Source: Thermoplasmatota archaeon
Lineage (GTDB): Archaea > Thermoplasmatota > E2 > DHVEG-1
Reading direction: 5' to 3'
Length of the DNA: 64,000 nt
Assembly: GCA_029939595.1 (NCBI GenBank)
Contig: JAOZSQ010000001.1
Span: 197,722-261,721 of the forward strand
Numbering within the stretch: position 1 is the stretch's first letter; each line of letters begins with the position of its first letter. The notes under the pieces are model-generated. The model did no database searches. It was not told where the DNA came from and was given only the letters and a program-made list of their open reading frames with translations. Position numbers and translations under genes: made by a program. Of this stretch, positions 26,451 through 39,560 are shown piece by piece.

Positions 26451-29400
26451 ATGGGTCGTGATGATAAAATAAATACTGCTTTAGAGCAGATTATACAACG
26501 ATTAGGAAGTCTTGAAAAGACAGTTAGGGAAAACGAAATTCGTCAAGAAGAGGCGCATAAGATAGCTGTGCCTAAAGAACGAAGGGAACCAATTGATGGT
26601 GTGGATGCTCTGTTACAACATCAACAGAAAGAACAAATTAAAAGAGAACAACTAAGAGATAAATTAAGAAAAAAAGAAAGAACCGAAGATTTTAAAAGAG
26701 AAACTGTAAAAGATAAAAAAGAAGATAAAAGAAGACTAGCTGAAGATATCCAAAAAAAGAAAGAAAAAGAGAAAGAAAAAGTAGAAACTGTAAAAGATGA
26801 AAAGAAAAGAAAAAAAGAAGAATATGTGGCTGAACGAAAGAAGCAAGTTGAAGATGCAAAAGTTCAAAAAGAAGCCGATAAAGCAGCAAAAAAACAAGAA
26901 AAAGAATTAAAGAAAGGGCAGAAAGAAGAAGATTCCTTCTTATATAATAGCGAAAGTGGTTCTGGTGAAGGATTGAATCTTGGTGTAAATGATAATCAAA
27001 CAATGTTTGATTTTGGAGGTTTTGGTGGAAAAGATAAAGAAACCGGTGGATCAAAAGATCCTATAGATGAACCAACAAAACCAGAAAAGAAAATTCCTGA
27101 AACTATACCTAAAAAAACGGAACCAGAAAAGGTTGCTCCCATAGTCAAAAAGCAAACTCCTCCTAAAAGGGTGACACCAATTGCTAGAAAAAAAGTAGCA
27201 ATTGATAAGAAAGTACCTCGCAAAGTTACCGAACAAGATGACATATCCAAAAAAATTCTTGAAGAAGAACCTATTAAAGAACCTATTAAAGAACCTATTA
27301 AATTTCTTGCAAAACCAGTAGAAGCGGAAACCTCTTGTTTAGAGGGGTTATGTAGAGCTTCAACTTTAATTGCTAGAATTGATGAAAATGTACGAAAAAT
27401 TGGTTATAAAGTAGGTATTACTCATTCAAAAATTCAGGTAGCTGCCTTTGCAAAAGGTGGTATAGGTAATGTGTTTTTGGAAGCAGGGGGTATTGTAACT
27501 AAACCTACTGCAATGGCTGTGACAGGGGAAGCTGGTAAGGAAATGGTTATTCCTCTTAAAAAGAGAAGCAAAGAAAAGAAACGATTTCTTGGGGAAGTTG
27601 GTCAGGAAATTGATAAAGTAATTGAGAAAAGAGATGAAAAGAAAGAAGAGAAACAAGAAAAAGAAAAGATAATAGATAGTAAAGAGAAGAAGAAATTAGG
27701 TTTTCTTGAAGAACGAAAACAAGCTAAAGAAGCCAGAGAAGCAGCCAAAGAAGCCGATAAAGCAGCCAAAGAAGTAGAAAAAGATCAAAAAGAGGATGAT
27801 TTTTTATATGAAGGTGGTGGTGAATCTGGTGAAGGAATTAATTTTGGTGTAAATGAGAATCAAACAATGTTTGATTTTGGAGGTCTTGGAGATCTGTTTA
27901 AAAGAAAACCAAAACCTGATAAAACCGATGCTGAAAAACCAAAACCAGGAAAACTAACATTTGAAGAGTTATTTCCTAAAGAAAAAGAAATTCCAGAAGT
28001 AGTTGGGGAACCTGTTAAAAAAGAGAAATTACTTACTTTTGATGAATTGTTTCCAAAACAAAAGAAGCAAATTAAAAAGAAGGAACCAGTTAAAAAAGTA
28101 GAAAAAAAAGTAGAAGAACCGGTTGAAAAGACAATAGAAAAGAAAAAAAGACCTGTTAAGAAAAAAGAACCAGTTGAAGAACCAGTTGAAGAACCAGTTG
28201 AAGAACCAGTTGAAGAACCAGTTGAAAAAGCAGTAGTTGCACCGGTGCCAGTTGAAAAAGCAGTAGTTGCACCGGTGCCAGTTGAGAAAGCAGTAGTTGC
28301 ACCGGTGCCAGTTGAGAAAGCTGAATCTCTAATTGCGCCTCCAGTTCCAATTGCCGAAGGGTTTCCATGTATGGAAGCTCTTTGCGCTAGGGTTTCTACC
28401 ATTGATAGAATTGATGAGAATGTTGAAGCCATTAATAAACGATTTAGAATACCTCTTTCAAAAATAAAGAAACCAAAAGTAGTTAAGTTTGCTAGGGGTG
28501 GTGTTTTAGATACTACAATGGAATATGGTCAGGTATTTGGACCAGGATTGTTTCCAGCAGCACAAGCAGCAGTTGGTGGTGTTATGAGTGGCAAAAATCC
28601 AATGGCGGTTATGGGTGATGTAAAGGAAATGATTGTTCCACTTGATAAAGCAAGTAAGGAAAAGAAAGGTTTTATTGGTGAAATTGCAGACAAGATAAAA
28701 GGTCTTTTCTCAAGAAAGAAAAAAGAAGAAGTTGTTGAGCCAGAACCGGCAGCATCTCCTCTTGGTGGAATAGCAAGTATGATTCCAGGTGGAGATATGA
28801 TCCCTCTGGATATGATTAGTCAGTTTCTTCCTATGGATCAATTGAAAGGTATGATTCCTATGAAAAAGGGTGGAATTATTAAAAAACCTGTTGTGGCTGG
28901 TGAAGCTGGTGATGAAGCGATTGTTCCTCTTGGTAAAGGAAGTAAAGAGAAAGATGCTTTTTTGGATGAGGTAAGTGAAAAGTTGGTTGGTAAAAAAGGA
29001 GACAAGAAAATATCCTTTACTATGTCTAAAATTATTACAACCGGCGATTTGAATAATACTGCACTTATTCAAGAAAAAATAATTGAAAAGAAAAGAGGAA
29101 AACGGCTTTTTACTCAAACAAAACAAACGATTAAATTTACAGATAGAGATAAATTACTTAAAAAAGTAAATGCTATACATAATTCCATAATAAATGAAGG
29201 TGGTGCAAAAGGAAGAACAGAAATTAACTTTCCTGGTTTAGCTGATATAGCTTATGATGCATTTGATATGAATGTATGGGGTCCAGTAATTCAAGCAATT
29301 GATTATTTGGGCGGTGTTGATATGGTTCAAATTGGGGCAGCAATAAAGAATGCGTGGTTGATAGGGAAAAGTGGTAAGGCATTTCAATGTTTGACTAGTC

Positions 29401-32400
29401 CCGAATTTAAAGAACTGGCTAAAATAGATTTTTATGGATTAACTGGTTTAATTGAAGAAATGGCTCGTTTAGATAGCGATCAGATTGTTTCGGCTACTTA
29501 TAATGCGTGGTTATTGGGAAAAATATCAAAACCACTAAGCGTTTTGATTACGAATAAAGATTTACAATCATTTTTGAAGTTGAATTTGGGAGAGGTTTAT
29601 AATTTAGCCATTCTTACTGAAGAATTGGCTGCTCTTCACACTTCTGATATTACCCTTGCCTCATTACATGCATTTATGTTGGGTCAATCCTTCAAGCATT
29701 TTAGCACTGTTATTGACATATCCAAACATATTGGTGATTTGGGAAGTAGAGGATTATTTGGATTTTTTAAAACTGGAATTTTTGCGTTGGTTGACCGATT
29801 ATCCTCATTTAAAACAGGTGATGTTACTCGTGCCTGTCTTCATGCTTGGATGATAGGTAAAGGTTCGCAACAATTAGTATCTGTTGCCGAAGTGATGAAA
29901 TTGAAAATTTTCTCAGGTTGGAGAGAATTTTTTGGTATTGAAGATCCGGTTTCCATAATGGTTAAAAAACTTTCAAGTTTAACAACTTCTGACGTTACCA
30001 GAGCAACTCTAAACGCATTCATTTTGTCTCAAGGTGTTAGATCGTTCAAAGCGGTTGAACAAGTGTCATCATTAGGAAGAAGATTTAGATTTTTTAAGAA
30101 AAAAACAGTCGTAGAAGTGCTCGTTGATGTGGTTAAACAATTAGCTGAAGTGGAAAGATCCCAAGCATTAAGGGCAACTCAAGTGGCACAAGGTCTTGGA
30201 ATGATCGGAGCCAATGTCAAAACATTAAACGAAGTTGCAAAATTAAACAGAAAGAGTTTCTTTATAGCTGGAAACACAATGGTTAAAGATATTTGTGATG
30301 TTGTATCTGGTTTGAGTTTGTTTAATTGGAAAGATATTTTGGTTTTTGCAAGAAACACTTTAGCCATTGCTGGTACAGTTAAATTTACAAAAGATATATT
30401 AGGAGTTACCGAATTAACCAGAAAAAGTTGGGGTTTGATTGGAGATACAGCTATAGATGAGATTACTTTTGTGGTTGAAAAATTAAGTCAATTTTCATTA
30501 AAGGAGATAGGAAGAGCAGTTGTCTTGGCTACTTCTCTAGGAAAGGCTTCGCCCAACTTTATGCAAATTATACCAATCGCACAATTGGGAAGAAAATTTA
30601 TTAGAAAGTCAATAATAGAGGCTATCGCAGGTGTTATTGATGTATTAAAAGAAATTAGTCTAAGAGATATCGTTAGAGTTACCCACAATGTTTTTGCTTT
30701 GGGTTTTAATGCTCCTATGTTCCCGAAGATGAAACCTATAGCTGAATTAATGGGGGCTAGTCATTGGTCTGGTTTTGGTAATGCGTATATTACAGATATT
30801 GGATTAGTTCTTGATAGGATGAAAAATTGGGAACCGGATCAGGTACGAAAATCAGCATTATTGGCTGGTAGTTTGGGACAGGCAGCACCGTTATATTTTA
30901 AAATGATACCTATTTCTAAACTAGCGCAAGGAAGTAAATGGTGGGGTGGTTCTTTAATAATTGATGATATTTCTAAAGTTTTGAAGGTGTTGAGTGCTTA
31001 TAGTTGGTCTGATATTGCCAGAATTAACATATCTGCTTTGGCTCTCGCAATGAATGCTCCGAGTTTTGCTAGAATGTCAATAATTGGGCTTTTGGCAAGA
31101 CCAAGTAGGTTTTGGAGAAAACGAACAATCATTGAAGAAGTTACAACGGTTGTTAATGAGTTGGGAAAATTAGATCAAGCAGATGTTCGTAAGTCGGCTA
31201 TGGTAGCAGGTACACTAGGAAGTCCGGCATTCAAGGGATTGGCTACTATAGGCGAATTACTTGAAAATGAGTCTAAGTATATTTTTTGGGAACATGAAGG
31301 AACCAGTACAATAGATAAAGTAAAACAAATTGTAGGCGAATTTAAACAAATAGATTTGGCCGATGTTTTATTGGCTGCTGGAAAGGCTGCGACATTAGGT
31401 TTACTAACTCCTCAATTCATGAAAATCAAGTTACTTGAACCATTGATTGCCGGACCACGTAAGGGATTCATGGGTCAAATAGGAGACTTTTTCTTAGGCA
31501 AAGAAATAAGTCCAATCGCCAAAGCTAAAATATTGGTGGATGAATTCGCTAAAATTGATACTACTCAAACGGCTCTGGCAGCGGTTAAAGCAGTTATACT
31601 AGGAAAAACCGCATCCAGTTTTCTTGCTGTGCCGGATTTGGGAAGGTTGGTAGCTTACAAATATTGGGGTTTTAGTAATAGGAGACCAGTTGATGATTTG
31701 AAAGATGCTATTGATGGATTATCAGAAATTGATCCTAGAAACGCTGTGAAAGCGGCAGCAAGTGCTTTTGTAATTGGCAAAGGTATGGGTAATTTTGGTG
31801 AGCTTGGTAAGGGCATAGCTGGTTTGTTTAAGAAAAGATTTATTTTCTTTGGAAAGACCAGAATTGAGATGATTACCGATATGGTTGAGCGATTGGGCAA
31901 GTTAAAGCCTACTATGGTTCTGGCAGCGGTAGGAGCATTGGGTGTTGTTAAGGCGGCACTTAAAGCTTTTGATAAAGGTGAAGGTGGAATGGTAATGAGA
32001 AGTATCACCGGATTGAAGAGTTTCTTTGGTGGTATTATGGCATTTGCAAAGGGTGTTGCTGGTGTTGGTATTTGGGTATTAGGAAAAGTATTAAAGAGAG
32101 CAGCCAAAAGTTTAGCAGAAGCTCAAATGCACATGGATATGGTTGGTGAAATCAGTGATAAATTGATGCAGAAGATAAAGGATCTTAAAGAATTTATTAC
32201 TGTTGCTACTGATTTTGGAAAGGTTAAGGGTGCTGTAAAGAGTTTGGAATATATTGCCAAACGGATTGATAATTTTGCAGATATTGAGCGATTGAAAAAT
32301 CTTGATAAAATTGGTTCGGCTATTGAGAATTTGGCAGATACAAAGCAAGTAAAGAAAGCAGTTAAGGGTATGAAGATGATTGCTAAAAACACTGATCAAA

Positions 32401-35400
32401 TGCAACAAATGTCTGGTTTCTTGAAGGATTTTGGTGGTCAGAAATCGTTTAAAACTGGTGGATTCATTCCTGCGGGTAAGGTTGTTACAGGTGCTACTTT
32501 ACACGGACCTGAGATGGTTATTCCAATGAAAGACCCCAAATTCACTGGTGGACCTCCTGAATCTGCAAGTGGATATAAACGTCTAGCAGAATTGGTAGAA
32601 GTATTTGAACGAATAGATCCAGCGAGTATTCCTAAGTTTATTAAAGGAATGTCTTTGTTATCATCTAATTTAAAGACTTTTAAAAAGTTTGAAGGTGCTA
32701 AAACATTGAAGCATTTGGCTATGTCTGTTGATCCGGTATCTGATATCAAGAAAGTGAAACAAGCTGTTAAAGGTATGAAATTGATAATGAGTAATATTAA
32801 GATGCTTGAAGGAGTTAAAGCGGTTCCGAATCTTAAACAATTATCATATCTTATTCATGCGGTTGGTGATTATGATCAAGTGAGAGCGGCTGTGAGAGCC
32901 TTTGATTTGATTACTCCGAGACTTATTGAACTTGGTAAGATTGAAGGCGCAAAAGAAATGCGAAAGATTTTATATGCTGTTCAAGGTCTTTCTAATGAAG
33001 ATGCGATGTATAGTGTTACCACGAGTCTTGAAATGTTGGTTGGTCAAGTTGATAATATGAAGAAGATAGGAAGTGTTGGGGAATTAACTAATATATCGTA
33101 TGCTGTTGAAGGGTTATCCAATATTAAGAAAACTGGTTTTGCATTACTTAGTATGTTCTTGTTGGCTAAACGAGTGAAGGATTTTAAGGCATTGGAAGGT
33201 GTTGGCGTACTTCAGAATGTGGTGAATGCTGTAGATGGTTTATCTAGTCCAGTTAAAACAGCAATGGCTATTGGTAGTATGTGGATGTTGAGTAAACGAG
33301 TGGATGATTTCAAGAAAATGGAAGTTGTACCAAACTTGTTGAATCTTTCAATGGCGGTTGATGATCTTTCTCAGATTTGGAAAGTAATAAAAATGATTGC
33401 CGGAGTGAAGTTAATTTCTAAATTTATTACCAGTTTCCAGAAACTTCAAGGTATAGGTGAATTAGAAAAGATTGCATATTCGGTGGATAAGTTGTCTCAA
33501 ACAGGAAAAGTGATGAAAATGATTTTCAATGTTTGGGCAATTTCTAAGTTTGTGGGTAGTTTCCAGAAACTTCAAGGTATAGGTGAGTTGGATAATATTG
33601 CGTATTCAATAGACAAATTATCTCAAACCAAGAAAGTAATGAAGATGATTCTCAATATCAAAATGATTAAAAAATTTGCTATTGATGATATGAAAAAGTT
33701 GGCTGCGATTGATGAGTTGAATTCGTTGATAAGAGTGGTTGAAAAGTTATCTCGTTTTGGAAAGGTATTAAAGAGTATTATTGCCATTAAAATGTTGGGT
33801 GGTCAAAAGAAGAGTTTTGAGAAAATCAGAGAAATAAATGAAATAATAAACGGCATACCTCATTTTAAAACAAATATGGCAGTTATTACAGGTATCGGTT
33901 TAGCCAGCCCGTTAATAAAGAAGGCGGTTAAAGTGATTAAATTTATGGGTAAGAATTCCGAAGAAATTAAGAAAGTGAGTGTTCTTAATGCGTTTGATGA
34001 ATTAGGTGATTTCTTTGATGTAGTGAAAAAAGTTGGTGCAATGGGTGTTCTTGGATTTGCTTCTAAATCAATGATTAAAGCGGTTGATGTTGTGAAAGAA
34101 TTGGGAGCGGTCCCAACGTCAGTATTTGAAGATCTTGGCGATAACTTGGCTGTAATATCTAAAACTGAAATTCATTTGTTTAAGTCAATGAAAATAATGG
34201 GTGGATTGGGTTTTTCAAGGAAACTAATAAAGAATGCTATTAAAAGTATTCAAATGTTACAAGATAATAAAGATCTAATAGCCACTCTTGATCAACTCCA
34301 GTTTCCTAAAGATATGAGTAATTTACAAGTATTAATATCATTAGGTGAACAAAAAGATTCTATTGAAAGAGCTATGAAGAGTATTGAAAAACTCAATGAA
34401 AACATGGGTATTATTAAGAGTATTGATATAGAGGCTTTCAATAGGTTAGGCAAGGTATCTGTTGGTGTGCGTGGTTTGGGACAATTAGAACATGTTAATA
34501 AGAATATAAAGGTATTGAAAGGCATTGAGAAAGATGGTGAAACAATAATTCGTGCTTCAGAAATATTGAAGCAAGCCGGATTTACTATTGGTGAATCTAA
34601 AGGTGAAAAGATGGGAGCCAAAGCTGAAGATGTGTTAGCTGGAATGACAGAAAAGGGTGCAAAAGCGAAGGAGAAAGGAAAAGAACTGTTTGATAGTGTT
34701 AAAGGTGTTGATATTAAAGGTAAGGGTACTGAAGCCTATGAAAAAGGTAAAGGATTAGTAGCTGGATTGTTTAAGAAAAAAGAAAAGAAAGTTGAAGAGG
34801 GTTTAACTGGTGCTGCTGATAAAGTGGATAAAATGAAGGAGAAGGGTGATGTAGAAGCTGAACCGAAGGCAGGATTGGGATTTATTGGTGGATTAAAGAA
34901 GAAAGCTTTTGGTTTAATGGATGAAATGAAGACTGTTAAAGAAGAAACCAAAGGCGAGGAGAAGGTAGAAGGGAAAGGATTTTTGGATAAGTTGAAAGAA
35001 CAGAAAGAAGATTTATTAGAGAAAGCTAAAGGTGTAAAAGAGAAGGTAGTTGGTACAGTTACTCCTAAAGAAGAAGAGGTTGGATTTACAACTGGTCGTC
35101 AAGATTTAGATAAAACAATGGAAGGTGGTTATGAAAAGCCATTAAAGAAGAAAGTAGGTGATTTTGTAACTGGTAAAATGCAAGAATTTGGTCTTGGTGA
35201 TCTTACAAAAACTGATAAAAGTAAAGAATTAGTTGGTTATTTGAAAGATAAGAAAAAGGAAGGAGTTGATTATGTAAAAGGTAAAGCGGATGAAGCTGGT
35301 GATAGTTTAGGTTCCAAGAAAGATATAGTAGCAAAATATGTAACGGATCAATATGGTGCGGTTACTAAGGTTGTTGTTGATTACTTTGGCAAATCAAAAG

Positions 35401-38060
35401 AATATACTGTTGAGCAATATAAGAATTTAAGAGAATATGTAGATGCGAAAGTTGAAAGTGTTAAAACTGCGGTTAAACCCAAACCAAAACCAGTGGAAGA
35501 GGTTAAACCGGTAGATGTGGGCGAAGCAAAGGCAGAAGCGGTAGCCAAGAAACAACAAGCCAAAATACTCCAATTTCCAACAGAAGTGGAAGAAGCCAAG
35601 AGAGCTTTACAAGCTAAAAGAGAGGGAATAGAAGTAGTTAAAGCTGATGCTGGTGGTGTGGTTAATGCGGTTAATTCGGAAGAATTGGTATTACCAGGAA
35701 TAGATGGAAAGAATAAGAAGGTTACAGAAGGGTTTGCAAAGACTTTTGGATCAAAGGTAGCTGAATCGGAACCATTTCAAAAGGTAATAGAAATTTCTGG
35801 AGAAAAGACAGCCAGTAATGTGGTTGGATGGTTGGAAAGTCCGATTGGGAAGATAACTGAATGGGTAGAGAGTAAGAGGCAATCTGAAAAGAAAGTGGAA
35901 TCTAGTGTGGGAGATCTTTATCAACAGGAACAAACGAAAAAAGAACATGAACAAGCTGTTGCTCTTGAGTCGGATCGGAAACAGGTTGAATTGGTAGATA
36001 CTATTGAACAAGGTAAAGTTCCACCACCAACAATACAAACAATAGATGCTACAAGAGAAACACAAGCTAGGCATCTTACAATGGAACAAACTAACACTAA
36101 ACGAGTATTGGATAAACTTGAAGGTATGAATGTTGGAACTGCTGCTGGTGCTGGTGCTGGTGGAGATTCTGAAAAGAATAAATTTAATATGCCAGGATTG
36201 CCACCTATACCTCTTCCTTTTGTTAGAAGAAAACCAAAGGTTAAACCAAAACCAAAGGTTAAACCAAAACCAAAGGTTAAACCAAATGTTAAACCAAATG
36301 TTAAACCAAAACCAAAGGGACGATTTAGTTTTAAGAAACCTGTTGCTGGTGCTGTTGCTCCGCCTAAGATCAAGTTAGATGTGCCAAAAGAAGCACCTAA
36401 AGCAAAAGGTGGATGGTTAAGCAAAGCATGGGGTTGGACTAAAAAGGCAGCAGGAAAGGTTGTTAAGTTTGTTAAGAGTGTTGGAAGTTTTCTAAAACAA
36501 GGAAAGAAAACTATAATGAGGTATCTTAAACCAATTGGAAAATATGTTGGTAAATTGGTTGCTGGTTCGGCAAGAGGTCTTGGGAAGTTTGCTAAGAAAA
36601 TACCTTTATTGAGTATTTTGTTTGCGATTTGGGATGGTGTTCAAACGTATAAAGATGCAAGTAAGATGAAAGCCGAAGGTAAGTCTCCACGAACCATTGC
36701 TTTAAAAACTATTCCATCTATAGCAGGTATTGTTGGTGAATTGGTTGGTGGTGCATTAGGAACCTTTTTAGGAACTATTCCTCCACTTACATTTTTTGGT
36801 GGTACTTTTATTGGTGGTCTTCTTGGTGGATTTGGAGGTAAAAAGTTATTTAAATGGTTGTTTGGAATGCCAGCAGTTGCAGGTTGGATTGCTGATGCAA
36901 TGGGATTTACTGAGGCGAATGATGCAGCCTGGAAGAAGGATATGGAAGAAAAGGAAAAGGAAAAATCAGCAGAAACATCTCCTCCTGAAGTGGATATACC
37001 TAAATCGGAAGGAGCAGCAGCACCTCAAGAGGGTACGCCTGTGGATGAGGCTGCGCCTCAAGAGGGTACGGATGCTGAGTTGCCTAATGAAGAACCGGTT
37101 GATGCACCAAAAGAACCAGATATGCCAACGATTCCGAAGATACCAAGTCCTTCTCCTGTGGATAAAGGTGGTGTTTCAATGCAGAGAGGTGGGCTTGTTG
37201 GTGAAGGTGAAACAGTAAATGCAACTTTGCATGGTCCTGAGATAGTTATTCCATTGAAAAAGAAAGATGCAAAGGGTTTAAAAACTGTTCATGGAAAGGG
37301 TACTTTCAAGGAACCAGCTAAGTTTAAAGAACAAGCTCTTCTTCAGTTTAAGAAAATGAAGTTGAGAGGTGTTTCAAAAACAGCATTAGAAAAAGTAATG
37401 GATAGTCATCCTTTATTTAAGAAACATAAAAAATACTTTTTAGAACAGTTATATAATGCAAAAGGAACTAAAAAGAAGGGAACAAGTGGAAAAGTTGGAA
37501 GACCAAAAGGTGGTGTAAAAGCCAAACCAATGCCAGATTTAGGAAAAGTTGTTGTTGGGTCGGCTGGATCTGGAACATTTGGGGCAACTGTTGAAGAAAG
37601 TGTTATTAGTGATGGTAAAGGTGAAACTAAACAAGGATGGGTTAAATCATCAAAGAATGTTCCTGGTGTTGCTAAGAAGTTTTTGATTAATATGATGGAC
37701 AGGATTGATAAAGGTGATAGTTTTTCAGCAGAGGAATCAGATAAGTTCATAAATATGGCATCTCAGTTTGGAGTTCCTTCTAAATATTGGCATTCGGGTT
37801 TGAAGTTAAAAGTACATGATACACAGAAGGCACTCAAACATCAAGCGTTACAAAGAAAGAAAGTAGAAAAGCGAGTGGCGGGTGAAACTTCACGAGTGGA
37901 TGAAGCAGCGGGTAAAGCAAAAATATTGCCGTTTCCAGTTATGCAACCACAAGCTCCTCCACAGGCTCCTCCTCAACCAAGTAGTAATGAGAGTGTAATG
38001 GTTGCAACGGGTGATAAATCATTTGCACATATGTTATATAACATTTATCAATATGGGTAA
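26451..38060 (+). CDS. tail tape-measure protein (3,869 aa)
   Basis: Position after tube and chaperone. Five copies of G-E-A-G-x-E-x-I-V-P-L-like motifs. ~40-aa periodic aromatic/Ala repeats across about 5 kb. K/E coiled coils. C-terminal Gly-rich hydrophobic segments. Confidence 0.7.
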   Translation: MGRDDKINTALEQIIQRLGSLEKTVRENEIRQEEAHKIAVPKERREPIDGVDALLQHQQKEQIKREQLRDKLRKKERTEDFKRETVKDKKEDKRRLAEDIQKKKEKEKEKVETVKDEKKRKKEEYVAERKKQVEDAKVQKEADKAAKKQEKELKKGQKEEDSFLYNSESGSGEGLNLGVNDNQTMFDFGGFGGKDKETGGSKDPIDEPTKPEKKIPETIPKKTEPEKVAPIVKKQTPPKRVTPIARKKVAIDKKVPRKVTEQDDISKKILEEEPIKEPIKEPIKFLAKPVEAETSCLEGLCRASTLIARIDENVRKIGYKVGITHSKIQVAAFAKGGIGNVFLEAGGIVTKPTAMAVTGEAGKEMVIPLKKRSKEKKRFLGEVGQEIDKVIEKRDEKKEEKQEKEKIIDSKEKKKLGFLEERKQAKEAREAAKEADKAAKEVEKDQKEDDFLYEGGGESGEGINFGVNENQTMFDFGGLGDLFKRKPKPDKTDAEKPKPGKLTFEELFPKEKEIPEVVGEPVKKEKLLTFDELFPKQKKQIKKKEPVKKVEKKVEEPVEKTIEKKKRPVKKKEPVEEPVEEPVEEPVEEPVEKAVVAPVPVEKAVVAPVPVEKAVVAPVPVEKAESLIAPPVPIAEGFPCMEALCARVSTIDRIDENVEAINKRFRIPLSKIKKPKVVKFARGGVLDTTMEYGQVFGPGLFPAAQAAVGGVMSGKNPMAVMGDVKEMIVPLDKASKEKKGFIGEIADKIKGLFSRKKKEEVVEPEPAASPLGGIASMIPGGDMIPLDMISQFLPMDQLKGMIPMKKGGIIKKPVVAGEAGDEAIVPLGKGSKEKDAFLDEVSEKLVGKKGDKKISFTMSKIITTGDLNNTALIQEKIIEKKRGKRLFTQTKQTIKFTDRDKLLKKVNAIHNSIINEGGAKGRTEINFPGLADIAYDAFDMNVWGPVIQAIDYLGGVDMVQIGAAIKNAWLIGKSGKAFQCLTSPEFKELAKIDFYGLTGLIEEMARLDSDQIVSATYNAWLLGKISKPLSVLITNKDLQSFLKLNLGEVYNLAILTEELAALHTSDITLASLHAFMLGQSFKHFSTVIDISKHIGDLGSRGLFGFFKTGIFALVDRLSSFKTGDVTRACLHAWMIGKGSQQLVSVAEVMKLKIFSGWREFFGIEDPVSIMVKKLSSLTTSDVTRATLNAFILSQGVRSFKAVEQVSSLGRRFRFFKKKTVVEVLVDVVKQLAEVERSQALRATQVAQGLGMIGANVKTLNEVAKLNRKSFFIAGNTMVKDICDVVSGLSLFNWKDILVFARNTLAIAGTVKFTKDILGVTELTRKSWGLIGDTAIDEITFVVEKLSQFSLKEIGRAVVLATSLGKASPNFMQIIPIAQLGRKFIRKSIIEAIAGVIDVLKEISLRDIVRVTHNVFALGFNAPMFPKMKPIAELMGASHWSGFGNAYITDIGLVLDRMKNWEPDQVRKSALLAGSLGQAAPLYFKMIPISKLAQGSKWWGGSLIIDDISKVLKVLSAYSWSDIARINISALALAMNAPSFARMSIIGLLARPSRFWRKRTIIEEVTTVVNELGKLDQADVRKSAMVAGTLGSPAFKGLATIGELLENESKYIFWEHEGTSTIDKVKQIVGEFKQIDLADVLLAAGKAATLGLLTPQFMKIKLLEPLIAGPRKGFMGQIGDFFLGKEISPIAKAKILVDEFAKIDTTQTALAAVKAVILGKTASSFLAVPDLGRLVAYKYWGFSNRRPVDDLKDAIDGLSEIDPRNAVKAAASAFVIGKGMGNFGELGKGIAGLFKKRFIFFGKTRIEMITDMVERLGKLKPTMVLAAVGALGVVKAALKAFDKGEGGMVMRSITGLKSFFGGIMAFAKGVAGVGIWVLGKVLKRAAKSLAEAQMHMDMVGEISDKLMQKIKDLKEFITVATDFGKVKGAVKSLEYIAKRIDNFADIERLKNLDKIGSAIENLADTKQVKKAVKGMKMIAKNTDQMQQMSGFLKDFGGQKSFKTGGFIPAGKVVTGATLHGPEMVIPMKDPKFTGGPPESASGYKRLAELVEVFERIDPASIPKFIKGMSLLSSNLKTFKKFEGAKTLKHLAMSVDPVSDIKKVKQAVKGMKLIMSNIKMLEGVKAVPNLKQLSYLIHAVGDYDQVRAAVRAFDLITPRLIELGKIEGAKEMRKILYAVQGLSNEDAMYSVTTSLEMLVGQVDNMKKIGSVGELTNISYAVEGLSNIKKTGFALLSMFLLAKRVKDFKALEGVGVLQNVVNAVDGLSSPVKTAMAIGSMWMLSKRVDDFKKMEVVPNLLNLSMAVDDLSQIWKVIKMIAGVKLISKFITSFQKLQGIGELEKIAYSVDKLSQTGKVMKMIFNVWAISKFVGSFQKLQGIGELDNIAYSIDKLSQTKKVMKMILNIKMIKKFAIDDMKKLAAIDELNSLIRVVEKLSRFGKVLKSIIAIKMLGGQKKSFEKIREINEIINGIPHFKTNMAVITGIGLASPLIKKAVKVIKFMGKNSEEIKKVSVLNAFDELGDFFDVVKKVGAMGVLGFASKSMIKAVDVVKELGAVPTSVFEDLGDNLAVISKTEIHLFKSMKIMGGLGFSRKLIKNAIKSIQMLQDNKDLIATLDQLQFPKDMSNLQVLISLGEQKDSIERAMKSIEKLNENMGIIKSIDIEAFNRLGKVSVGVRGLGQLEHVNKNIKVLKGIEKDGETIIRASEILKQAGFTIGESKGEKMGAKAEDVLAGMTEKGAKAKEKGKELFDSVKGVDIKGKGTEAYEKGKGLVAGLFKKKEKKVEEGLTGAADKVDKMKEKGDVEAEPKAGLGFIGGLKKKAFGLMDEMKTVKEETKGEEKVEGKGFLDKLKEQKEDLLEKAKGVKEKVVGTVTPKEEEVGFTTGRQDLDKTMEGGYEKPLKKKVGDFVTGKMQEFGLGDLTKTDKSKELVGYLKDKKKEGVDYVKGKADEAGDSLGSKKDIVAKYVTDQYGAVTKVVVDYFGKSKEYTVEQYKNLREYVDAKVESVKTAVKPKPKPVEEVKPVDVGEAKAEAVAKKQQAKILQFPTEVEEAKRALQAKREGIEVVKADAGGVVNAVNSEELVLPGIDGKNKKVTEGFAKTFGSKVAESEPFQKVIEISGEKTASNVVGWLESPIGKITEWVESKRQSEKKVESSVGDLYQQEQTKKEHEQAVALESDRKQVELVDTIEQGKVPPPTIQTIDATRETQARHLTMEQTNTKRVLDKLEGMNVGTAAGAGAGGDSEKNKFNMPGLPPIPLPFVRRKPKVKPKPKVKPKPKVKPNVKPNVKPKPKGRFSFKKPVAGAVAPPKIKLDVPKEAPKAKGGWLSKAWGWTKKAAGKVVKFVKSVGSFLKQGKKTIMRYLKPIGKYVGKLVAGSARGLGKFAKKIPLLSILFAIWDGVQTYKDASKMKAEGKSPRTIALKTIPSIAGIVGELVGGALGTFLGTIPPLTFFGGTFIGGLLGGFGGKKLFKWLFGMPAVAGWIADAMGFTEANDAAWKKDMEEKEKEKSAETSPPEVDIPKSEGAAAPQEGTPVDEAAPQEGTDAELPNEEPVDAPKEPDMPTIPKIPSPSPVDKGGVSMQRGGLVGEGETVNATLHGPEIVIPLKKKDAKGLKTVHGKGTFKEPAKFKEQALLQFKKMKLRGVSKTALEKVMDSHPLFKKHKKYFLEQLYNAKGTKKKGTSGKVGRPKGGVKAKPMPDLGKVVVGSAGSGTFGATVEESVISDGKGETKQGWVKSSKNVPGVAKKFLINMMDRIDKGDSFSAEESDKFINMASQFGVPSKYWHSGLKLKVHDTQKALKHQALQRKKVEKRVAGETSRVDEAAGKAKILPFPVMQPQAPPQAPPQPSSNESVMVATGDKSFAHMLYNIYQYG
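28167..28316 (+). repeat. in-frame tandem repeats: 12 bp x4 (EPVE) then 30 bp x3 (KAVVAPVPVE), inside the tape-measure gene
   Basis: Direct inspection. Confidence 0.7.
36229..36318 (+). repeat. in-frame 15/18-bp tandem repeats encoding (KPKPKV)n, inside the tape-measure gene
   Basis: Direct inspection. Confidence 0.7.
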
Positions 38061-38063
38061 GAT

Positions 38064-39560
38064 ATGACAACAATTTTAAGATATCCATTAGAACCAGAAG
38101 TGGCGGATGCTTATCCTCATTTAAAATTTGAGGCATTTACTTATGGTATGCCCAAACCGGATGGATCTTCTGGAAACGAGTCAAGTACACAGGAGAAGGA
38201 AGGTGTAATGTTGAAAGTAGGGGCTAAGTTGGTTGAGATACGAACTTATATTCCGCCTAGTGCAATGAAAAATGCTGTAAGTTCTGATTGGCAATTGGAA
38301 GATGCTATGTTGGTTGGTAGTAAAACATTGGATCAATTAACAAGTTTTAAAGGAATAGTAGATTTAGCGGAAGGATTTGTACAATCAATTGATTTATCTG
38401 GAATGGCACAAACATTAGTAAATAACAATAAATATATTAAATTAGGTGCAGGGTTTATGAATACCATTTCTTCCTCAATGGGTAAGACTCAGATGCCTAG
38501 TAAAATTCCTATTTTTAAAGGTACTCAATTACATAATCCTCAATTTCAATTTGATTTTGATCCTTATAGTTTGAATGAAGCGAAAGAGGTTAATACAATA
38601 GTGAAGATGTTTGAAGCATTAGCAAAACCAATAATGAACAAAATGACATTGGCAAAATTGGGTGCTGCATTTGGTACTAGTGGTCCTATGGGCGCACTTA
38701 TAAAAAAGGCAACAAGTTATTTAACCAGGGGTATTATATTTTTAGATTTTCCACCTTTATGGAAAATTACTGTAATGGATGGTTCTAGTAGTGATCCAGT
38801 TACCAATTTTATGTATGATAAATCGGATTATTATGCAATAACAACTGTTGATTCAACAGCGGGTGAAGGTGCTGAATATAATTATTTTCATGGAAAAGCA
38901 AAATATCCAGTTAAAACAAATTTAAGTGTTACATTTCAGTCTATGTATCCACCACGACACAAAGACAAACAACCAAGTAAAGCGGATAGTTGGCCTGGAG
39001 GCGCAAAGGAAAGATGGCCACAAATAGTGAAACATATTGCGACATTATATGAAGGAGGAAATACTACTGAAACAATGACGAATAAAGGTATTGCTTCGGT
39101 TACTAGGAGATTGCCAAGGTCAACATCTCAATATAGGTCAAGAGGTGCAAATACATCAACCCCAACTGCTGGAACTAATACTTCAAGTGGAGCTAATCAA
39201 GGTGGAGCTAATCAAGGTGGAGCTAATCAAGGTGGAGCTAATCAAGGTGGAGCTAATCAACCAAATGCTAATCAACCAAATGCTAATCAACCAAATGCTA
39301 ATCAACCAAATACGGGTGCAGGAGCTACAGCCCAACAAGGTGATGGTACTACTCAAGAACAGAATCAGCAACCAAATCCTGATAATAATCCAGTGGTTGA
39401 TCAAGCGAATGCAAATGCTGCAAATACGGCAAAAGGTAGAACAACAAGTTATTCTTCAAGTTCGGGTTCAAGTGATGAAGAAATGAGTGCTGAAGAAGCT
39501 AAAGCTAAAGCTAAAGAGGCTGCTCTTGAAGAAGCTTGGAGAAATCAAACTGGTATGTAA
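38064..39560 (+). CDS. tail/baseplate protein following the tape measure (possible Mu gp43-like), with GANQ/ANQPN tandem repeats and an acidic tail
   Basis: Position. N-terminal YPHLKFEAFTYGMPKP loosely resembles Mu gp43 HLQPASFRGVPF. Repeats at 39189-39312. Confidence 0.35.
   Translation: MTTILRYPLEPEVADAYPHLKFEAFTYGMPKPDGSSGNESSTQEKEGVMLKVGAKLVEIRTYIPPSAMKNAVSSDWQLEDAMLVGSKTLDQLTSFKGIVDLAEGFVQSIDLSGMAQTLVNNNKYIKLGAGFMNTISSSMGKTQMPSKIPIFKGTQLHNPQFQFDFDPYSLNEAKEVNTIVKMFEALAKPIMNKMTLAKLGAAFGTSGPMGALIKKATSYLTRGIIFLDFPPLWKITVMDGSSSDPVTNFMYDKSDYYAITTVDSTAGEGAEYNYFHGKAKYPVKTNLSVTFQSMYPPRHKDKQPSKADSWPGGAKERWPQIVKHIATLYEGGNTTETMTNKGIASVTRRLPRSTSQYRSRGANTSTPTAGTNTSSGANQGGANQGGANQGGANQGGANQPNANQPNANQPNANQPNTGAGATAQQGDGTTQEQNQQPNPDNNPVVDQANANAANTAKGRTTSYSSSSGSSDEEMSAEEAKAKAKEAALEEAWRNQTGM
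39189..39312 (+). repeat. in-frame 15-bp tandem repeats (ggagctaatcaaggt x5; gctaatcaaccaaat x4)
   Basis: Direct inspection. Confidence 0.7.

Follow-up and report, generated by a model that had tools for sequence, protein, structure and literature searches.

What is a long composite repeat doing at the N-terminus of a giant protein that occupies the place of a phage tail tape measure? The question is raised by an open reading frame (ORF) of 3,869 amino acids at 26451..38060 (+), which follows a strong AAGGAG ribosome-binding site in a 64,000-nucleotide stretch of contig JAOZSQ010000001.1 (positions 197,722 to 261,721 of assembly GCA_029939595.1, deposited as a Thermoplasmatota archaeon); we refer to this whole stretch as the window. 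A preliminary description of the window had reported, at the N-terminus of the ORF, two consecutive copies of a five-part module of ~0.9 kb, ending at 28700 and carrying a conserved pair of cysteines, and had read them as a folded, possibly metal- or ligand-binding domain of a kind unusual inside a tape measure. The analysis presented here indicates that the region is probably the head-proximal ~860 residues of the gp29-type tape measure of a very divergent T4-like jumbo myovirus, lengthened by an ancient in-frame duplication.

The tandem duplication is collinear, and the motifs quoted for it all lie in frame in the ORF. Module 1 and module 2 align with a local score of 431, compared with 72 +/- 11 for shuffled sequences (z = 32), and BLASTP of residues 289-387 against residues 633-749 gives E = 1e-16. 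The collinearity goes beyond the low-complexity repeats: against shuffles, z is 6.4 for the lysine/glutamate (K/E) coil, 18.5 for the motif we call motif A, 11.5 for the helix bearing the cysteines and 16.9 for the hydrophobic block ending in the GEAG motif, whereas the two spacers (z = 2.7) resemble each other in composition only. Within the window, neither motif A nor the Cys helix was found outside this ORF.

Module 1 (residues 100-392; 293 residues, 0.88 kb; 26748..27626) and module 2 (residues 393-755; 363 residues, 1.09 kb; 27627..28715), like all the elements that follow, are on the + strand. Module 1 opens with a K/E-rich segment (residues 100-159; 37% K, 22% E; 26748..26927) that AlphaFold2 (AF2) predicts to be a helix. 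Next come the acidic motif A copy 1, EDSFLYNSESGSGEGLNLGVNDNQTMFDFGGFG, with neither K nor R (26928..27026), and a Pro/Lys/Glu spacer (27027..27329), predicted by AF2 to be disordered, which includes EPIK three times as a 12-nt repeat at 27265..27302. The module is completed by Cys helix 1, TSCLEGLCRASTLIARIDENVRKIGYKVGITHSKI, with C296 and C301 (27330..27434), and by GEAG block 1, FAKGG...EAGGIVTKPTAMAVTGEAGKEMVIPLKKRSKEKKRFLGEV (27435..27626). In module 2 the corresponding elements are motif A copy 2, EDDFLYEGGGESGEGINFGVNENQTMFDFGGLG (27792..27890), a Pro/Lys/Glu/Val spacer (27891..28361), Cys helix 2, FPCMEALCARVSTIDRIDENVEAINKRFRIPLSKI, with C640 and C645 (28362..28466), and GEAG block 2, FARGG...AVGGVMSGKNPMAVMGDVKEMIVPLDKASKEKKGFIGEI (28467..28715), which is recognised through its similarity to copy 1 (E = 1e-16). 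The second block is degenerate and contains an insertion: the GEAG ending attributed to both copies holds for copy 1, whereas copy 2 reads GDVKEMIVPL. Likewise, the module length first given fits copy 1 and is too short for copy 2, the difference being made up by expansion of spacer 2 and by the insertion in the second GEAG block. The counts of three for EPIK and for KAVVAPVPVE (28218..28321) stand, while EPVE is present five times (28165..28234) and not four. The two full copies are indeed consecutive, but the repeated region does not stop at 28700, since a partial module 3 (residues 756-860; 28716..29030), consisting of a short spacer and GEAG block 3, KKGGIIKKPVVAGEAGDEAIVPLGKGSKEKDAFLDEV, matches copy 1 with E = 2e-7 and extends the region to 29030.

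The spacers carry tandem DNA repeats, with 3.2 copies of 12 nt for EPIK (100% matches), 5.8 copies of 12 nt for EPVE and 3.5 copies of 30 nt for KAVVAPVPVE (98% matches), and these short repeats look like recent slippage products. Low-complexity DNA is error-prone, and perfect 12- and 30-nt tandem repeats of this kind might suggest that the duplication itself is an assembly artefact built from mis-joined reads. The copies, however, are just 57-82% identical in DNA, depending on the block, and ~40% identical in protein, and the frame stays open over 11.6 kb; an artefact is thus extremely improbable, and only the copy numbers of the short repeats could be uncertain. Two further repeat families, with units of ~57 residues (residues ~960-1830; ~29330..31940) and ~42 residues (residues ~1900-2480; ~32150..33890), support growth by duplication as the general evolutionary mode of the gene. 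The second of these families weakly matches the XopAD/skwp repeat effectors of NCBIfam, with E = 8e-9 and a score well short of the cut-off.

To date the duplication, the sharing of codons at aligned identical residues was compared with the expectation from the gene's own codon usage. In the Cys block the same codon is used at 9 of 19 identical degenerate residues (9.7 expected), and in the GEAG block at 15 of 27 identical residues (13.3 expected). Codon sharing at the expected level means that synonymous sites are saturated and hence that the duplication is old; the Cys and GEAG blocks owe their preservation to purifying selection at the protein level, and the conserved Cys pair, as first reported, has persisted across this old duplication. 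Motif A, the third block under selection, behaves differently: 19 of 21 residues share their codon against 12.2 expected, and nucleotide identity reaches 82%. Because this codon identity is far above expectation, the near-identity of motif A must in part reflect homogenisation of the DNA, a pattern suggestive of gene conversion between module 1 and module 2. A 39-nt direct repeat within motif A (26982..27020 and 27846..27884) differs at one base, has its copies 864 nt apart and in frame (288 codons), and occurs nowhere else in the window (0 expected by chance); at the same spacing, a stretch of 103 nt is 81% identical between the copies. The 39-nt pair is also a ready substrate for deletion or duplication of a 288-codon module.

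The ORF occupies the place of a tape measure gene, as had been stated on the basis of its flanks. Upstream lie a gp26-like baseplate hub gene (25457..26233, +; Pfam PF12322, E = 7e-27; PHROG 150) and a gp51-like small ORF of 50 codons (26266..26418, +), which is below the length limit of the program-made ORF list and was recognised by alignment with cyanophage gp51 through a conserved MP(F/W)E.D.Y core. This core recurs in a small, correspondingly placed ORF of L001, an IMG/VR locus that is the only related locus found and whose hub protein is 37% identical. Downstream are a gp48-like tail-tube cap gene (38064..39560, +; PHROG 230, E = 1.7e-13) and a gp53-like gene (PF11246), with gp6-like and gp5-like genes farther on. 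Because the order gp26-like, gp51-like, 3,869-residue ORF, gp48-like, gp53-like is that of T4 and of the T4-like cyanophages (Kyanoviridae), the ORF occupies the gp29 (tape-measure) slot of a contractile tail of T4 type, though a very divergent one, and it belongs to the hub/tube-initiation cluster beside gp26, gp51 and gp48. Its product is long, repeat-rich and mostly helical (helices being predicted, at low confidence, in the parts that were modelled), with a Gly-rich hydrophobic stretch of Gly-zipper type at residues ~3380-3480. The neighbouring proteins are singletons encoded on a source contig of 426,929 bp, a size that points to a jumbo phage. Their closest GenBank phage proteins are only 20-28% identical.

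By position and architecture the ORF fits the gp29 role, but its product has no detectable homology to gp29 or to any curated tape-measure family. No Pfam family matches the protein, the PHROG tape-measure families match at the short GEAG motif only (E = 3e-4 to 5e-3), NCBIfam RcGTA_tape scores 22.5 bits against a cut-off of 220, and T4 gp29 compared with segments of the protein gives z <= 1.3. As a rule of thumb a tape measure provides ~0.15 nm of tail per residue; at that ratio 3,869 residues would give roughly 0.55 to 0.6 µm, probably an exceptional length for a contractile tail.

The fifth element of the module connects the protein to other tape measures. An exhaustive HMMER search with residues 130-900 against 1.84 billion representative proteins returned five proteins, all through the GEAG consensus (F/M)(A/Q)xGG(I/V)VxxPTLxL(I/V)GEAGPEAV(I/V)PL, each containing 2 to 6 matched stretches; Pfam confirms three of them as tape measures (PhageMin_Tail, TMP_3, Tape_meas_lam_C). 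Module 1 is matched by three tape-measure families of PHROG (1535, 10093 and 167), each time towards the C-terminal end of the family, and a profile search of the PDB with the motif found two tape-measure chains, one from an F-type pyocin (25VF, residues 521-540 of 612), the other from phage phiCD508 (9G8S, residues 1294-1325 of 1424). The consensus peptide matches 127 GenBank phage records, mostly annotated as tape measure, from viruses of Streptococcus, Clostridium, Campylobacter, Synechococcus and Halorubrum; T4-like cyanophages have it in their gp29-position proteins. We then scored the window protein with an external profile built from the copies in other proteins only, without the window sequence. 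GEAG block 1 scores 31.7 bits, block 3 26.0 bits, and two further copies 8.7 and 4.6 bits, where the best of 200 shuffles reached 1.9; the degenerate module-2 copy falls below zero. The copy at 4.6 bits (motif 4; residues 1999-2027, ...TGATLHGPEMVIPMK; 32445..32531) and that at 8.7 bits (motif 5; residues 3576-3603, ...NATLHGPEIVIPLK; 37176..37259) are 55% identical to each other. Motif 5 lies ~100 residues past the Gly-zipper stretch and 266 residues from the C-terminus, which is the canonical position. Just upstream of the Gly-zipper stretch and motif 5, at 36230..36318 (residues ~3260-3290), there is also a PKVKPK-type tandem repeat with 18- and 30-nt units.

To judge from these sequence comparisons, the FAxGG...GEAGxExVIPL block is a widespread, often multi-copy tape-measure motif, of which this protein has five copies. 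The long tape measures P0002, P0003 and P0004 (PhageMin_Tail, TMP_3 or Tape_meas_lam_C) repeat GG(I/V)VxxPTLxL(I/V)GEAGPEAV(I/V)PL 4 to 6 times, as the window protein repeats its own version, and the tape measures of Streptococcus, Clostridium, Campylobacter and Halorubrum phages have the same motif. In other tape measures the motif usually stands ~65 to 130 residues from the C-terminus, and in each of the multi-copy proteins, the window protein included, one copy is near the C-terminus. In the TP901-1 tape measure a short coil/β region is found at the C-terminal extremity, and the last ~60 residues are essential (PMC5099701). What sets the window protein apart from P0002-P0004 is that its N-terminal copies are embedded in a larger unit with motif A and a C-x4-C helix. 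The view that the module is unusual inside a tape measure consequently fails for its fifth element, since GEAG...VIPL is standard and often multi-copy, and embedded domains are known in tape measures (PMC11329794); motif A and the Cys helix, by contrast, had no match anywhere searched. The arrangement is unusual here, with the GEAG motif N-terminal, present three times, and set inside a large composite repeat together with two orphan motifs.

Since the five motif copies divide the ORF into segments, we also considered whether GEAG...VIPL marks proteolytic sites and the ORF encodes a polyprotein that releases modules 1 to 3 as separate small proteins, of the virion or ejected. That tape measures may be fragmented or cleaved has been proposed for other phages (PMC11661146), and a motif that elsewhere lies a short way from the C-terminus could mark the ends of ancestral units. 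The tape measures with 4 to 6 copies are, however, ordinary single-gene proteins, a literature search found no cleavage at the GEAG motif in any system, and no protease gene was identified beside the ORF, which makes a polyprotein very unlikely.

The two orphan motifs were compared with sequence and profile collections and modelled. Motif A and the C-x4-C helix have no match in Pfam, NCBIfam, PHROGs or the PDB sequences, and none in the exhaustive HMMER search of the 1.84 billion representatives or in IMG/VR. For the modules as a whole, the PDB sequence search gave no match below E = 0.07 and Pfam no family at E <= 1; embedded enzymatic domains (lysozyme, M23, NlpC/P60, RNA polymerase) in particular found no Pfam or PDB sequence match in the modules. 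The AF2 model of module 1 has a mean predicted local distance difference test score (pLDDT) of 45.6, with the K/E segment as a helix, motif A and the spacer disordered, a helix at residues ~292-321 that includes both cysteines, a β-hairpin at GEAG and a helix at SKEKK..FLGEV. A second run on the Cys-to-GEAG segment, with the five window copies as the alignment, has a mean pLDDT of 42.1. Neither run shows packing between the elements, although with a shallow alignment and a monomer only this is a weak test.

These results speak against the five parts forming one folded domain, as had been suggested: between motif A and the Cys helix there are 101 to 157 low-complexity residues, and pLDDT is low in both runs. 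Metal binding on one chain fares no better, because a metal-binding fold would bring at least three to four Cys/His ligands together and each copy offers just two Cys, lacks a conserved His and finds no match in Pfam, NCBIfam or the PDB. Each module could still be a compact domain in which motif A, the Cys helix and the hairpin come together with the spacer looped out and bind a metal or ligand, perhaps with six cysteines per trimer. The protein has 7 Cys in 3,869 residues, and the fact that 4 of them make up the two C-x4-C pairs, kept despite saturated synonymous sites, would suit such a domain, as would the high conservation of motif A; there are also phage spike proteins with metal ions on their three-fold axes (PMC11948020). 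Against this, the i/i+5 spacing of the two cysteines on the predicted helix puts their thiols ~140 degrees apart by α-helix geometry, the blocks are unpacked in the AF2 models, the residues that split motif A from the Cys helix change rapidly, and the conservation of motif A is partly a matter of DNA, in the direction of gene conversion. With no family match for either block, we regard a compact domain of this kind as distinctly unlikely.

Other origins and roles for the N-terminal elements were tried and rejected. Homology of the Cys helix to the helices repeated at the N-termini of T4 gp29, the L001 tape measure and the cyanophage proteins was dropped at z of 0.5 to 3.7 and a hidden Markov model score of 2.2 bits; the tape-measure N-termini of other T4-like phages are too divergent for profile building. 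A Cys-less third copy of the Cys helix at residues 9-32 was unsupported (z <= 0.2). A basic, DNA-binding leader is unlikely, residues 1-860 being a highly charged, near-neutral polyampholyte (net charge +21) in which motif A is distinctly acidic.

Relatives of the module were sought in several collections. A tblastn search of GenBank phages found nothing related to the module or to the complete tape measure, and a word-indexed search of 5.8 billion proteins with residues 1-900 and 861-3869 found none, its candidate lists having probably been swamped by K/E words. IMG/VR was scanned with peptide patterns, alignment, a DNA pattern and gp48-like plus tube anchors, with no module relatives. The 3,869-residue protein is itself absent from a collection of 15 billion proteins in which its neighbours are present, and giant relatives could be missing in the same way; scans with DNA patterns are independent of gene calling. 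In JGI metagenomes the DNA pattern for QTMFDFGG had 11 matches, all of which we take as chance: ten lie in one shared bacterial protein context, in DNA of 52-60% GC, and from a reading of their sequence appear TonB-dependent-receptor-like, and the other is an unrelated short match. The pattern for NQTMFDFGG had one unrelated chance match in GTDB genomes. In L001 the tape-measure fragment (~2700..4473) has a different start and one GG...GGQELVTVTPL motif at ~residue 300; it lacks motif A and the Cys helix and is not significantly similar to the window protein.

The closest comparison by gene order is with T4 gp29, the baseplate hub subunit and tail length determinator, and with the gp29-position proteins of cyanophages ACG-2014e (Syn7803C2_8) and S-CREM1 (S-CREM1_47), which occupy the same slot after gp26/gp51 and beside gp48/gp53. 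The cyanophage proteins have the GEAG motif in common with the window protein (pairwise E = 2e-5 to 3e-4). T4 gp29 resembles it in style, with a helical N-terminus, a Pro/Glu-rich linker and a hydrophobic stretch, but has no GEAG motif on sequence inspection and no homology detectable outside the short motif. The window protein is 4 to 6.5 times longer than these proteins. It has five GEAG copies and no hydrolase, whereas in the cyanophage proteins a single copy, ~40% of the way along, precedes hydrolase domains. The ACG-2014e and S-CREM1 proteins (L015 4735..7641 and L016 3846..6896) are annotated as "late control gene D protein" and "M15 family metallopeptidase". Both lie just downstream of gp26 (and of gp51 in S-CREM1) and have a GEAG motif following a Gly-zipper region; they are probably the tape measures of these cyanophages and may be mis-annotated.

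In the cyanophage proteins the GEAG motif stands directly after the Gly-zipper stretch and before the cell-wall hydrolase domains, an arrangement that would fit a role after ejection. On such an explanation the N-terminal units of the window protein would refold in the host envelope, their Pro/Lys-rich linkers spanning the periplasm or cell wall and the hydrophobic/GEAG blocks helping to build or anchor a DNA conduit, and ejected tape measures with later roles, embedded domains and membrane segments have been described (PMC11329794, PMC11948020). The N-terminal modules, however, have no Kyte-Doolittle window above 1.5 and no enzymatic domain, and the N-terminus would be the last part to exit the tube. 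We consider action after ejection unlikely.

The explanation that we favour is that these units lengthen the tape measure. An ancient in-frame tandem duplication produced two full copies and one partial copy of a largely non-globular composite unit, in the order K/E-rich α-helix, motif A, disordered Pro/Lys/Glu linker, amphipathic C-x4-C helix, GEAG β-hairpin and SKEKKxF(L/I)GE helix. Tape measures are trimeric coiled coils in the tail tube, with their C-termini on the spike and their N-termini at the collar or neck (PMC11329794, PMC11661146), and for this reason the duplicated modules would lie in the head-proximal ~20% of the lumen. Each unit of ~290 to 360 residues would extend rod and linker within the tail tube by roughly 45 to 55 nm at the ratio given above, and the length of the linker would keep shifting through slippage of the 12- and 30-nt repeats, allowing its fine-tuning. 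The conserved blocks would provide points of contact or registration, among the three tape-measure chains or with the tube lumen, and not as catalytic or ligand-binding sites; the two orphan motifs in particular probably mark places of chain-chain or chain-tube contact. Speculatively, the Cys pairs may staple the chains through disulfide bonds or a shared metal ion.

Several points weigh against this explanation. Pro-rich disordered linkers differ from a classical α-helical ruler, and motif A (its core identical at 9 of 9 residues) and both cysteines are conserved beyond what a pure spacer would need. The AF2 models were made for a monomer with almost no alignment depth, and their low confidence is compatible with folding that depends on the trimer. 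No function is assigned to the GEAG motif in the literature found, a search for the GEAGPE motif string having returned no relevant paper spelling the motif out. In three long Pfam-confirmed tape measures the GEAG copies start at 31-50% of the length, whereas here three lie in the first 21%. Finally, because no relatives were found in any collection searched, copy number cannot be correlated with tail length. A more specific structure is also conceivable, in which motif A, the C-x4-C helix and the GEAG hairpin form a trimer-dependent node, stapled by metal or disulfide, that registers the three chains at the head-proximal end; we regard such a node as a long shot.

Other genes of the window belong to the same tail cluster. 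Upstream of the hub gene are three tandem gp19-like tail-tube paralogues (23573..25433; 204, 184 and 227 residues; PHROG 45, E = 1e-16 to 2e-26). In T4, gp19 is a single gene, and the presence of three suggests a heteromeric or specialised tube. Farther upstream, roughly at the place expected for the tail sheath gene, lies a 664-residue ORF (20716..22710), similar in length to T4 gp18, which has no Pfam or PHROG match at the thresholds used. Two small ORFs (22774..23085 and 23088..23501) stand between it and the tube genes. The second of these and ORF 19789..20610 match PHROG 8309, a family of unknown function, the one by way of its C-terminal part, the other by way of its N-terminal part, and ORF 23088..23501 also matches a head-decoration family.

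That tape-measure length evolves through in-frame internal duplications and short tandem repeats is well established, with TP901-1 and mycobacteriophages as examples (PMC5099701, PMC3271669, PMC13585406), so that growth by internal duplication is already known in principle. Compared with the repeats of those phages, the unit described here is unusually long, composite, old and diverged, and includes conserved motifs that are not helical; it offers a clean, datable example of a unit of ~290 to 360 residues duplicated in a giant 3,869-residue tape measure. The analysis also draws attention to the FAxGG...GEAGPE..VIPL motif, which is widespread in the tape measures of sipho-, myo- and archaeal viruses. 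What a specialist would not expect is confined to the orphan motifs and the Cys pairs. If the Cys pairs are inter-chain staples, they would bear on how very long tape measures hold three chains in register, and a head-proximal node, if it exists, would be a new answer to the problem of chain register raised by the 80α neck structure, in a tape measure of ~0.6 µm.

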